64,000 nt of DNA from Escherichia coli (lineage in GTDB: Bacteria; Pseudomonadota; Gammaproteobacteria; Enterobacterales; Enterobacteriaceae), in the NCBI RefSeq assembly GCF_041248615.1, contig NZ_CP158426.1; one strand, given 5' to 3'. Below, in pieces: positions 45,764 to 54,169 of the stretch. Positions within the stretch are counted from its first letter, which is position 1. Each line of letters begins with the position of its first letter. The position numbers and the translations under genes are program-made. The notes beneath the pieces are model-generated. The model had not been told where the DNA came from and did not search any database. It was given only the letters and a program-made list of their open reading frames with translations.

Positions 45764-45895
45764 GGTGTTGGTTCAGTTGGTTCAGTTGGTTCAATTTGTA
45801 AAGATCGTTGTTTTTATTGTGTTTTTTCTGAAATGTTGAACCAACATCAACTCATTTTGAACCAACACAGCCCAGCTCTGAACCAACAACACAGC
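45764..45895. repeat. iteron cluster A: 3 direct TTGGTTCAG repeats, AT-rich spacer, 4 inverted TGAACCAAC copies
   Basis: GGTGTTGGTTCAGTTGGTTCAGTTGGTTCAATTTGTAAAG (45764-45803) is the exact reverse complement of 54130-54169. Confidence 0.8.
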
Positions 45896-45989
45896 GATAG
45901 CTTTGTGATTGGTCCGTTATTTTCTGGCTGATATTTGAGCGTATAACAGTGTTATACAGTGGTATACTGTATGGATATTACTCACTGAT

Positions 45990-46430
45990 ATGGTCTTTGC
46001 AATGAGCAAATCTAATCTGATCGCGTTCCGCATCCCATCTGAATTGCAGGATGAGTTTAATCGGTCTGTTCTCGCTTCTGGAGGGGATAAAACCTCCTGG
46101 CTTGTTGATGCGATTCGCATGAAGCTGGGACAGCCGGAAAAGTCTATTGATTCACGAATGCTTGGGCTGGTGGAGCGCATGGAAAAAGCCGCAGCATCGC
46201 TTATTGCCGGAAAGCCGAACATCCCACCAAAGCCATATAACGAAACGGCAGTTATAAAGATCATTGCCGATACCATCCGACAGGGATTTGATAATGGGCG
46301 TGTGATAGCGGAACGGCTCAATGAAGCAGGCTACCAAACAAAAGCTGGTAAAGCGTGGGATAAAGACATTTACAGCGCGTGGAAGCGTCAGGGTAACAAT
46401 ATTAAAAGAATCAATACGCTGCTTCAGTAA
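45990..46430 (+). CDS. ribbon-helix-helix (Arc/Mnt/CopG-like) DNA-binding protein with C-terminal extension
   Basis: N-terminus (M)SKSNLIAFRIPSELQDEFNRSVLASGGDKTSWLVDAIRMKL has the RHH beta-alpha-alpha pattern; alternative ATG at 46002; the overlapping minus-strand ORF is judged a shadow. Confidence 0.5.
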   Translation: MVFAMSKSNLIAFRIPSELQDEFNRSVLASGGDKTSWLVDAIRMKLGQPEKSIDSRMLGLVERMEKAAASLIAGKPNIPPKPYNETAVIKIIADTIRQGFDNGRVIAERLNEAGYQTKAGKAWDKDIYSAWKRQGNNIKRINTLLQ

Positions 46431-46459
46431 TTGATCAGTGTATAAATGATATTTATCGC

Positions 46460-47437
46460 TCAATCGCTCCCTTTCCGCCCTTCAGCTACAGGGTCGTTGT
46501 CGGCGATAACAAAACCTAAGTCCTGAGAGAATCTCTCTCGTGGGAATCCTTTAGCAGGTAAACCCATTGAATCATATCCACATCCGGGAACATTTGGTTT
46601 AGAGTCAATAAGGTCTGCAATTTGCCGAAGCCATGTTGATCCCGGACCAAGTCGTTTAACTAAGTACCAGATAATACAGATCGCGCTAAAAATCCTCTCG
46701 CAACTCTCTGGATGGAGATTAAGTCCGTCAAAGTATTCATTATCCGGTACTGGAACTCGGGGATGCTTTCTATTCCATATTCTGGAATGGTGAGCGCAAC
46801 GATTCCTTATGAGATTAAGGCACTTCAACCATTTTGCAAATGTCTGCTTATTATCAATGCCAAAACGACGTATAATTTTCCCCTGCATATGACCATTAAG
46901 CATCGCATAATATTTAGACATCTGACCAAAATCCCAGGTCTCCACCGCCACCCAAAATGGAATCTCCTTGCCTTGGCTTCGATGCCATTCAATACAGTCA
47001 TCTCTGCTTTCGTCTAATTTTACTTTTTGCTTATACACCCAATGCTCGAAGGCAGATGAGAATTTTGGATTAATGTATTTTGATGACATGTAGGCAAGTG
47101 GATCATTGCGACCAACCTCATGCGCGATGACTGAACGAACATGAATCTCTATTCTTTCGATAGCATCAATCATCAAAAGACGCAGTTTTTTGTCAAAAAG
47201 ATATAGATCGTACGTCTTCTCGAAACTGGTACCAGCAAGAAATCGGTCTGTTCTGTACGAAAGACCTTTATCTGTTGTCGCAATAATTCTTGATGGGTAC
47301 CAAAAACCTGACAATCGATAATATCCAACCTGCGACAGCTTACGTATCGCACGATTTCGATCATTGATAATCATGCCACGTTCAAGTAGCAATCCTAGCA
47401 ATTCGTGATAGTCCTTATGAGGCTTTGCGGCAATCAT
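46460..47437 (-). CDS. Abi_2-family (AbiD/AbiF-like) abortive-infection protein
   Basis: Start at internal ATG (MIAAKPHKDYHELLGLLLERGMIINDRNRAIRKLSQVGYYRLSGFWYP…); conserved blocks YYRLSGFW and LIRNRCAHHSRIWNRK are the hallmark of the Abi_2 (PF07751) family as I recall it. Confidence 0.65.
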   Translation of the reverse strand: MIAAKPHKDYHELLGLLLERGMIINDRNRAIRKLSQVGYYRLSGFWYPSRIIATTDKGLSYRTDRFLAGTSFEKTYDLYLFDKKLRLLMIDAIERIEIHVRSVIAHEVGRNDPLAYMSSKYINPKFSSAFEHWVYKQKVKLDESRDDCIEWHRSQGKEIPFWVAVETWDFGQMSKYYAMLNGHMQGKIIRRFGIDNKQTFAKWLKCLNLIRNRCAHHSRIWNRKHPRVPVPDNEYFDGLNLHPESCERIFSAICIIWYLVKRLGPGSTWLRQIADLIDSKPNVPGCGYDSMGLPAKGFPRERFSQDLGFVIADNDPVAEGRKGSD

Positions 47438-47809
47438 AGTGGCGAAACAAAAGATAATAAAAGGCCCGACCGTGAAACTCACATGCCTGAAATCGGCGGC
47501 GGAGAAACAGAGGATCGGGCTCGGTTGCCTGTAACTCTATCCGAAGTTATCCACATGTCAATGCACAGTTACTTAGGAAACTAACATAGATACTATCATC
47601 ACTCACGAAAAACCACTATATGTGGTTTTTATTCATATTGTTATCCACTACAGGCTGTGTCAATAACTTTTACCTATTAATTGGGTAATTTCTACATTTT
47701 CCTATGCTGGCTAGTTTCTCTACTGAAAAGTTGGCACTCCTTAATCGCTTTTCGGTTAATACTATCGGTCTTCATATTGCCAGCAGCATACGCCATCCGA
47801 TAATTTCTA

Positions 47810-48200
47810 TGCTACGCGCGCGTACTTGTCGCAAAATATCAGGCAAAGGCCAGATTCAGAACGTCGTGATAACCACCAGCACAACATGAGATGTCATGTA
47901 ACGCGATTTATCACACCAGATACATGTGATTGGTGTACCCGCATAAAACATCGTCATAGCGCGTCCTGTGCGCATATACGCCGATAATCAACACATCACC
48001 ACCACTCTGTCTTATGTAGAGAACAGTTTTATGGTGCTCCCCGCCATCGTGTGCGTACTGGTCGGACGTAGTTGCAAAATTTTTTGCAACTGATACCCCT
48101 CGCGCGCGTACTGGTCACGAAATTGGTGTTTTGCTGTGGCAGTGATATCAGAAAAATCTTCCTGTTTCACATAAAGCGGATATGCGCGTACTGTAACGGC
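47810..48200. promoter_or_regulatory. repeat-rich divergent control region between the Abi-like gene and the secreted-protein gene
   Basis: Four copies of GCGYGTACTKGT (about 47817, 48050, 48103, 48184) and a 10-bp-arm inverted repeat AGTTGCAAAA-TT-TTTTGCAACT at 48070-48091; no credible ORF. Confidence 0.45.
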
Positions 48201-48307
48201 CCCATCAACTGGGAGCGGATTTGAAATCCCGACCCAAGCTATGTACCAAATGCCATGTCTTGGATATATGATGATTGCCATTCTAAACAACGCTAAAGGG
48301 AGGGTTG

Positions 48308-48708
48308 GTGTGAATCAATTGAAGCGATTGGTTGTCTCCGGTTTATTATTTGCTTCTTTTGGAGCGAACGCTGAATGCTGGATTATTGGTGATCTGAAAG
48401 GACAAGAAGCCTCAAGTTCAGATGGGTATAACTATAAGTTATCATCTATACCAGATACCTTTCATTTGGTAATAAGTAAAGAGAAGGCGGATCTTATCTT
48501 GGCAAAAGATGGTATAGGTGGAGGTATTGATTATTACCCGCTATCTCCGAATGCCATGATGGGAAGAAGCTATCGAGATGGTCAACTGACGCTTGTCACA
48601 TGGGCAATCTCAAATGACGGAAAAGTGATCCATACACGAACAATTAGTCGATCTGATATAGGCTCATTTACAGGCTCATTTGTCGGCAATGTTAAAGGCA
48701 AGTGTTAA
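48308..48708 (+). CDS. small secreted/periplasmic protein (candidate superinfection-exclusion factor)
   Basis: GTG start at 48308 preceded by AGGGAGG; signal peptide (M)NQLKRLVVSGLLFASFGANA, then a hydrophilic ~110-aa domain. Function is inferred from position only. Confidence 0.45.
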
Positions 48709-53429: not shown

Positions 53430-53445
53430 GCGATGCCATCCATTT

Positions 53446-53607
53446 TCACATACAGCCTGCCAGCGCCTTATCTATTAACCCTCGAGCAATTTCATGCAGA
53501 GTTGGCGCTACTCCAATTCCTGATTTTTTACGCTGCTCTTCCTGAATTTTCTTTATCGCTTCCATTTGCTTCTCACTTATCAATACCGGCTTTACTGAAA
53601 TAGCCAT
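53446..53607 (-). CDS. small ORF (53 aa) heading the operon
   Basis: Below the 60-aa track cut-off; ATG at 53607 preceded by AGGGGG; MAISVKPVLISEKQMEAIKKIQEEQRKKSGIGVAPTLHEIARGLIDKALAGCM; 16 bp upstream of the next gene. Confidence 0.35.
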   Translation of the reverse strand: MAISVKPVLISEKQMEAIKKIQEEQRKKSGIGVAPTLHEIARGLIDKALAGCM

Positions 53608-53620
53608 AACGCCCCCTTAG

Positions 53621-53640
53621 AACTGTATAAAACAACAGTT
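53621..53640 (-). promoter_or_regulatory. LexA-box-like palindrome upstream of the operon
   Basis: AACTGTATAAAACAACAGTT = CTGT-N8-ACAG with perfect AACTGT/ACAGTT arms, 14 bp upstream of the small ORF start. Confidence 0.45.
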
Positions 53641-53747
53641 ATTATAGTTTCACAAATCGCAATATTCATCATCGTAATTGCAAAATATGAAACAGATAGC
53701 ACAAAAAAATGCCACCGCTCAGTAGCTGGTGGCATCGTTCTGTGTGT

Positions 53748-53775
53748 CAGGTTTTGACAGGTTTTTTATGGACTC
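53748..53775 (+). terminator. hairpin plus T-run (plus-strand terminator-like) followed by conserved ATGGACTC motif
   Basis: CTGTCAGGTTTTGACAG then GTTTTTTATGGACTCTAAAAACT; a near-identical tail follows the hairpin at 59577-59606. Confidence 0.4.
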
Positions 53776-54053
53776 TAAAAACTATATTTATGGTGTCGCA
53801 TTACCCTTCACGGCAGGCGCTTTTCAGTTCTGCCCTTGCTTCTGGCTCCATTGGTAATTTGATTCGCGATCAGCTATGCGGATGGTTTGCTGAACAGGCA
53901 TAACAACTTCTCAGTGGCTGTTTTCTGAACTACGAAAATTTCGTAGTGCTCACTTTCAAAAACGTCACGCCCTTGTACACAGGATTTTACGAAAGTCTCG
54001 TAAAACACTCTCTGATGCCAGCCAGGTGTTGTGCGCATCAATTCAGTCACATT

Positions 54054-54169
54054 GTGTTGGTTCAAAATACCGTGTTGTTGGTTCAGTGTTGGTTCAATAA
54101 AAAGAATAAAATCCTTATAAAACAATACTCTTTACAAATTGAACCAACTGAACCAACTGAACCAACACC
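54054..54169. repeat. iteron cluster B, the inverted counterpart of cluster A
   Basis: GTTGGTTCA x3 then TGAACCAAC x3; 54130-54169 (CTTTACAAATTGAACCAACTGAACCAACTGAACCAACACC) is the exact reverse complement of 45764-45803; lies 22 bp past the primase-helicase stop. Confidence 0.8.

Follow-up and report, generated by a model that had tools for sequence, protein, structure and literature searches.

What are the two exact, oppositely oriented copies of one sequence that bracket about ten genes in Escherichia coli NRZ14408? They lie in a stretch of 64,000 nucleotides of this strain (hereafter the window), inside an integrative element of about 19.2 kb that is inserted between dinD and yicC and extends from about position 44954 to just past the end of the window. 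An earlier note, made from the sequence alone, had proposed a duplicated origin, the ends of a nested mobile cassette or an invertible segment. Our comparisons place the element in the EcCIMP1-like lineage of phage-inducible chromosomal islands (PICIs), and the two repeats are likely to mark two units of its replication origin, split by cargo genes. Among the three proposals the duplicated origin comes close to the evidence. The iterons of which the repeats consist seem to be cognate to the primase-helicase encoded next to them.

Two inverted iteron units in a PICI

The repeats at 45764-45803 and 54130-54169 are exact reverse complements over 40 of 40 nucleotides, as first noted, and the exact match grows to 45 nt (45760-45804 and 54129-54173), or to 55 nt at 95% identity. 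For an exact inverted pair of 44 nt in 64 kb, the chance expectation is about 7e-18. Where 0.56 copies of the iteron TGAACCAAC would be expected, the window has 12, every one of them in either of two clusters, A (45767-45887) and B (54056-54166). On the outer side of each cluster, three tandem copies follow each other with a 9-bp step. A 43-nt spacer comes next, with an AT content of 77% in A and 84% in B, compared with 53% for the whole element. On the inner side there are three opposed copies, as the earlier note had partly seen, with steps of 21 and 21 bp in A and of 11 and 21 bp in B. The outer halves of the two units are identical. The features that matter for the argument are the following:

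54056-54173: cluster B, putative origin unit 1; spaced iterons 54056-54096, AT-rich spacer 54097-54139, tandem iterons 54140-54166
45760-45887: cluster A, putative origin unit 2; tandem iterons 45767-45793, AT-rich spacer 45794-45836, spaced iterons 45837-45887
45760-45804: inverted-repeat arm A, 45 nt exact; made up of AAAAGGTG at the flank, three iterons and the beginning of the conserved motif ATTTGTAAAGA
54129-54173: inverted-repeat arm B, 45 nt exact
54192-56951, minus strand: primase-helicase (919 aa), presumed initiator; Zn-ribbon 35-70, Toprim 222-319, DUF927 366-644 and a C-terminal domain of about 170 aa

Cluster B had been placed just past the primase-helicase gene. It is indeed directly 3' of this gene, but the gap is 18 nt (54173 versus the stop at 54192) and not 22. 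Cluster A is located between perC and the gene of a 146-aa ribbon-helix-helix (RHH) protein. Ten or so genes separate the two units, which are 8.3 kb apart.

The element has the organization of a PICI. It encodes a tyrosine integrase and excises as a circle, an AlpA-type regulator is found downstream from int, the genes are unidirectional, and the primase-replicase (pri-rep) gene is followed by iteron sets flanking an AT-rich region (unit 1). Capsid, tail, terminase and lysis genes are absent, while four P22-type ejection/assembly genes are present. The closest described relative is EcCIMP1 from E. coli MP1, a PICI whose helper is the P22-like phage Kapi1; experiments showed that it is excised, depends on this helper and is transferred by it (Pick et al. 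2025, PMC11773190). The two elements share 99% identity in the N-terminal region of the primase, 97% in Ant, 99% in the gp14-like protein and 98% in the gp7-like protein. Both carry a TOPRIM-DUF927 primase, perC and two inverted units of six iterons, which are 8.5 kb apart in EcCIMP1. They differ in the integrase (only 28% identical), in the integration site (tRNA-Thr for EcCIMP1, dinD/yicC here) and in the cargo next to unit 2. On these sequence grounds the window element belongs to the EcCIMP1-like lineage. The "undescribed system" of the earlier note therefore holds in part: the element falls into a published family, but the EcCIMP1 paper makes no mention of an origin, iterons or inverted repeats. 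Literature on the iteron sequence, on EcCIMP1 follow-up studies and on DUF927 together with satellites yielded nothing describing these repeats.

In PICIs, the origin lies immediately 3' of the pri-rep gene and consists of iteron sets flanking an AT-rich region. In SaPIs, pathogenicity islands carried by Staphylococcus aureus, the iterons point in opposite directions around an AT-rich centre and are read by a winged helix at the C-terminus of the Rep helicase (Fillol-Salom et al. 2018, PMC6092414; Qiao et al. 2022, PMC9371898). This is exactly the layout of cluster B, and cluster A repeats the unit a second time. The difference lies in the distance: described PICI/SaPI origins are single and compact (about 200-300 bp), whereas here the two units, each with its own AT-rich spacer, are 8.3 kb apart.

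Exact 45-nt inverted repeats around a functionally distinct block of 8.3 kb could also terminate a nested mobile cassette, or serve as the sites at which a segment inverts by recombination. The assembly of the window contains a separate record of 19,226 bp, NZ_LT599831.1, in which perC is joined to int. This record is the excised circle of the window element, and its bracketed block has the same orientation as in the chromosome. We then constructed the junction that an inversion would create and searched it in 5,426 complete E. coli genomes. It was found in none of the 618 matching records, against 256 and 364 for the native junctions. PHROG and PADLOC searches of the element proteins revealed no transposase or invertase within the bracket. 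There is no target-site duplication at the repeats, whose outer flanks are not direct repeats. The content of the bracket is not constant either: relatives have between about 40 bp and about 12 kb there. The repeats are composed of iterons specific to the replicase. Both the invertible segment and the cassette with terminal inverted repeats were rejected, and we give them hardly any credence.

Iteron classes and the C-terminus of the primase-helicase

We fetched 55 loci, one per species, encoding relatives of the helicase half of the primase. An iteron cluster was present directly 3' of the primase gene in every locus with readable downstream sequence (about 50). The iteron itself varies by lineage: TGAACCAAC, TGAGACAAC, TGAACCGAC, TAACCCGT, TAACCCAC, TTAGCCCA and TTATCCCA were observed, with variants written as TAACCCGT/AC and TTA(T/G)CCCA. 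The iteron class tracks a short motif located about 20 residues before the C-terminus of the primase, which reads RKSPRIxGRQINVYVL, GRVRExGRQIRVYVL, RK(S/T)LRIDGKQPRFVVL, KALxxxGGKQHxFYxL or IRxPRLxHLNNARxWxYxL depending on the class. Five alignment columns (residues 897, 899, 900, 902 and 916) fully separate the 28 loci of the TGAACCAAC class from the 6 loci of the TGAGACAAC class. A putative iteron-reading motif lies within the C-terminal domain, at about residues 890-905 of the protein. A structural model of this domain gave the SaPI Rep initiator as best match, and the initiator thus resembles SaPI Rep in its predicted fold. Because an iteron cluster follows the gene everywhere and its class co-varies with the motif, these data support, although they do not prove, that the iterons are recognition sites of the C-terminal domain of the primase-helicase.

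The 146-aa RHH protein was considered as another candidate binder of the iterons and was rejected. Its homologues carry an operator of their own, GTAAGACA in two copies, and occur without iterons in three loci (L022, L035 and L036).

The second unit and the case for a split origin

The two units were inverted wherever their relative orientation could be read, one locus (L024) scoring equally both ways. The tandem triplets face outward, toward the primase gene in unit 1 and away from the bracket in unit 2. The outer-to-outer span was highly variable, with values of 256-324 bp, 0.64, 1.2, 2.0, 4.9-8.9, 10.2 and 11.9 kb. In the compact form, measured in 11 loci (256-324 bp), the two units abut and make one single origin, with a near-invariant pattern of steps across the TGAACCAAC, TGAGACAAC and TGAACCGAC classes (three or more classes measured). 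The experimentally validated origin of EcCICFT073 is likewise one compact region, with iteron steps of 9, 46, 22, 11, 9, 31, 11, 22, 46 and 9. Like the compact relatives, it is a mirror image bounded by inverted pairs of tandem iterons. Since the compact relatives share this mirror-symmetric design, the arrangement in the window looks like the compact design pulled apart.

Intermediate spacings were also found. One gene lies between the units in locus L052 (0.64 kb), a pair of genes in L053 (1.2 kb), and two small regulator genes in a circular E. coli record of 12.15 kb deposited as a plasmid (2.0 kb). In L053, an Erwinia metagenome-assembled genome, the region 4239-5013 between the units holds only a 176-aa protein of phrog_14093, a family without known function, and a 99-aa membrane-like protein. 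From their sequences, the two look like a toxin/immunity pair forming a minimal cargo.

About ten loci showed a single unit within the 10-kb flank. In none of these was the right end of the element seen, and direct repeats marking this end were found only in loci showing both units. A second unit was predicted just beyond the flank. When two of these loci were extended, both contained it, inverted and with the spacing pattern of unit 2, at 10.2 kb from unit 1 in the Pantoea agglomerans type and at 11.9 kb in Pantoea septica. The earlier note had considered that related elements might carry one cluster only; instead, a second inverted unit was seen at spacings from about 40 bp to about 12 kb.

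Could the second unit be a functionless copy of the origin that a rearrangement recently left behind? The identity of the outer halves in the window element would suit such an event. We aligned ten copies of unit 1 and ten of unit 2 from split elements. The iterons were invariant, the ATTTGTAAAGA motif (kept in both units of the ten elements) and TTGTTTT were conserved, and the rest of the spacer varied. Each unit also has a spacing signature of its own, with a short 11-bp step in 9 of the 10 unit 1 copies (EcCIMP1 being the exception) and a 21-bp step in all ten unit 2 copies, a type that is conserved across genera. Both units, with intact iterons, are present in Escherichia, Cedecea, Lonsdalea, Rosenbergiella, Chimaeribacter, Serratia, Leclercia, Pantoea and others. 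Because the iterons, ATTTGTAAAGA and the unit-specific steps were conserved while the spacer drifted, we regard units 1 and 2 as old, maintained paralogues. The exact identity over 45 nt in the window element, judged from this alignment, reflects constraint on functional sequence and not a recent accident. A functionless duplicate is accordingly very improbable.

Circles of this family have been deposited as separate "phage" or "plasmid" records, one of them from the assembly of the window itself. Two are of the split form (NZ_LT599831.1, also listed as L002, and NZ_CP148430.1, L064, 12,152 bp) and one of the compact form (CP031370.2, L065, 19,229 bp). Such separate records suggest that episomal copies are abundant enough to assemble on their own. 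Another particular case is Yersinia pekkanenii (L028), which has three compact double origins within 6 kb, in direct orientation (7170-7437, 11752-12019 and 12933-13230). Two of them are identical over 347 nt, and the arrangement suggests elements in tandem or duplicated in part.

Iteron plasmids (P1 incA, F incC, and alpha, beta and gamma of R6K) have the same iteron in several distant arrays, which the initiator can bridge. To our knowledge, the second arrays of P1 and F are control elements and not themselves origins. Unit 2 could similarly be an array for copy-number control, handcuffing or titrating the initiator: its iterons are those of the rep-adjacent array, from which it lies some way off, and episomal copies deposited as plasmids exist. 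Unlike the plasmid arrays, however, unit 2 duplicates the origin unit in full, including an AT-rich spacer and the conserved ATTTGTAAAGA motif that unit 1 also has. The titration reading fits poorly because a pure titration array would need neither of these. In compact relatives, moreover, the two units form a single origin of 260 bp, and a satellite that amplifies fast upon induction has little obvious use for negative control. We consider a control array unlikely.

The satellite phage P4 offers a closer comparison, which the earlier note had already drawn and which holds, P4 having two iteron regions, crr and ori. In the P4 record, type-1 repeats in mixed orientation are annotated in two places: crr, which directly follows the 3' end of the alpha gene, and ori, at a distance of 4.7 kb. 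P4 requires the two regions in cis, and its alpha protein binds each of them. As in the window, there are two separated clusters of the same iteron, one of them 3' of the primase-helicase gene. By analogy, no functional precedent for a satellite origin divided into two distant parts comes closer than the P4 ori/crr pair. The differences are nevertheless clear. PHROG searches of the element proteins returned none of the P4 gene set (sid, psu, delta, alpha-type replicase, cos). The element also lacks the cI RNA, and its replicase combines a DUF927 core with a C-terminus resembling SaPI Rep. The P4 clusters bracket the replication operon, whereas here they bracket an accessory module, and P4 crr consists of two direct repeats of 120 bp and is not a mirror image of ori.

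A related element in E. coli HH97 (L003) provides an independent case. It occupies the same dinD/yicC site and its primase is 86% identical over the N-terminal 340 residues, but the helicase half is of the DUF5906 type instead of the DUF927 type. Its iteron features are located as follows:

HH97, 27453-28680: iteron feature
HH97, 20468-20588: iteron feature

The DUF5906 module has a different iteron, GGTACAGG, which forms a pair of inverted clusters separated by 1.1 kb. The element also retains an orphan TGAACCAAC unit beside perC, with five intact copies.

This last observation raises the possibility that the arrays are mainly operators, the initiator controlling the perC and RHH promoters from unit 2, and read-through into the downstream operon from unit 1. 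HH97 would then keep unit 2 beside perC despite its swapped replicase. In every arrangement seen, perC starts 36-40 nt beyond an iteron unit (45731-45766 in the window). The unit concerned is unit 2 in E. coli and unit 1 in L017, L019, L024, L025 and L033 (around 11900), and the iterons probably overlap with the promoter of perC. Neither cluster contained a sigma-70-like promoter in consensus scans, a weak negative on which the clusters were also rejected as promoter arrays. In addition, the RHH gene has a separate operator, and an operator function leaves the AT-rich spacers and the compact mirror-symmetric origins unexplained. As the main role of the arrays, transcriptional control seems quite improbable; at perC, it could be a secondary function beside replication.

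The reading that we favour remains an EcCIMP1-like PICI origin in two units split by cargo. It draws on the layout and position of the units, the co-variation of iteron and C-terminal motif, the inverted second unit and its age, the reference origin of EcCICFT073, the circles, HH97 and the P4 precedent. The iterons would be read by the winged-helix-like C-terminal domain of the TOPRIM-DUF927 primase-helicase of the element itself. In most relatives, the units abut just 3' of the gene and make up a mirror-symmetric origin about 260 bp long. In the lineage of the window, the ejection-protein operon, AbiD and other genes lie between them, so that the origin would be split by 8.3 kb. Upon helper induction and excision, the AlpA-dependent operon would produce the primase-helicase, whose C-terminal domain may bind the iterons of both units, so that the AT-rich spacers open. 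The protein would then load itself as a helicase and prime synthesis. The two units might fire as two origins, or cooperate by being synapsed through initiator looping, as in P4 ori/crr.

Several points weigh against this reading. The lineages within one iteron class may be monophyletic, and the co-variation would therefore count few events and not many. About eight loci still show a single unit within the sequence available; the downstream regions of two loci, L029 and L026, run into other islands or a prophage. The right half of most compact relatives has a GC-rich and not an AT-rich spacer, and unit 2 of the split form is therefore not simply a displaced right half. The orphan unit of HH97 implies that unit 2 can be kept when the protein presumed to bind it is gone, and that it may have a different role, such as one at the neighbouring perC promoter. 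Finally, the EcCIMP1 study mapped no origin (PMC11773190), and iteron binding and initiation at the units are predicted from sequence in this family.

Cargo, neighbouring genes and significance

On the minus strand, the order of genes is int, the AlpA-like regulator, Ant, Ash, several small genes, the primase-helicase and cluster B. These are followed by a LexA box, a 53-aa RHH gene and homologues of the P22-type genes gp14, gp7, gp20 and gp16; all genes from int to gp16 are on the minus strand. Next come a small secreted-looking protein, AbiD, the 146-aa RHH protein, cluster A and perC. The corresponding features are:

62722-63990, minus strand: tyrosine integrase (RefSeq annotation)
61385-61603, minus strand: AlpA-type regulator or excisionase of the PICI (annotation; 100% identical in HH97; role taken from EcCIMP1)
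53446-53607, minus strand: RHH-like gene (53 aa) that opens the operon, with TATAAT and a LexA box upstream
48771-53429, minus strand: P22-type ejection-protein genes (PHROGs 770, 917, 598 and 651; RefSeq annotation), namely gp14-like (DUF2824) 52968-53429, gp7-like 52297-52974, gp20-like 50876-52297 and gp16-like 48771-50876
48241-48708, plus strand: small cargo protein with a signal-peptide-like N-terminus (phrog_2651, function unknown)
46460-47482, minus strand: cargo gene of the AbiD abortive-infection type (PADLOC AbiD, E = 8e-58; PHROG 2158)
45990-46430, plus strand: 146-aa RHH-type protein, with its own upstream direct repeat distinct from the iterons
45443-45730, minus strand: perC-family regulator, starting 36 nt outside unit 2

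The gene that the earlier note called Abi-like could thus be specified as AbiD. Its operon with a LexA box was identified here as a set of P22-type ejection-protein genes. These genes show patches of 90-95% nucleotide identity to P22-like phages, Kapi1 included. The satellite itself thereby bears homologues of gp14, gp7, gp20 and gp16. The LexA box, CTGTATAAAACAACAG at 53623-53638, abuts TATAAT just upstream of the 53-aa RHH gene. Among relatives, the strict CTGT-N8-ACAG form is present in 10 of 29. Many others carry a 15-nt CTG-N9-CAG palindrome at the same place, which makes regulation by LexA uncertain outside E. coli.

Between unit 1 and the LexA box (53695-54050, minus strand), a stretch of about 330 bp is conserved without any annotated gene. 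It ends in a hairpin resembling an intrinsic terminator (53726-53695), also occurs in elements without unit 1, and may encode a small RNA or peptide. An Rfam scan detected no structured RNA in or near the clusters. Its only matches were distant, at 59.4-59.6 kb: a C4 antisense RNA (59370-59457, minus strand, 80 bits) and isrK (59482-59558, minus strand, 63 bits). Both fall within an open reading frame of the "ash family", upstream of the Ant gene, and the region looks like an immunity cassette of the P1/P7 c4-icd-ant type in a PICI.

The gap between the units may have a function of its own. It could act as a slot for cargo, from one gene to about 12 kb. The split could then be functional, either because the initiator synapses complete inverted origins by looping, or because pairs of forks over-replicate the ejection/defence module, or because they feed recombination-dependent concatemers. 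We put this forward tentatively, as a doubtful possibility. A satellite of 19 kb needs such concatemers if it is to fill the headful of about 43 kb of a P22-like helper.

Both the family of the element (EcCIMP1-like PICIs) and the type of origin (the iteron origin of PICIs and SaPIs) are already known. The separation of origin units by kilobases of cargo, conserved across genera and with a continuum of spacings, does not appear to have been described. PICIs have been presented with one compact, rep-adjacent origin, and this family shows that the halves can stand as much as about 12 kb apart, with accessory genes between them, while remaining conserved in many enterobacterial genera. The split origin would explain, at the level of sequence, why a widespread E. 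coli satellite has so conspicuous a repeat, unit 1 and its flanks being carried by about 360 complete E. coli genomes. It would also link PICI replication to the old and incompletely understood ori/crr arrangement of P4, and designate a predictable site where genes for defence and helper interaction may accumulate. Finally, residues ~897-902 of the primase-helicase, set against the iteron sequence, provide a candidate specificity code that may be usable for building orthogonal satellite replicons.

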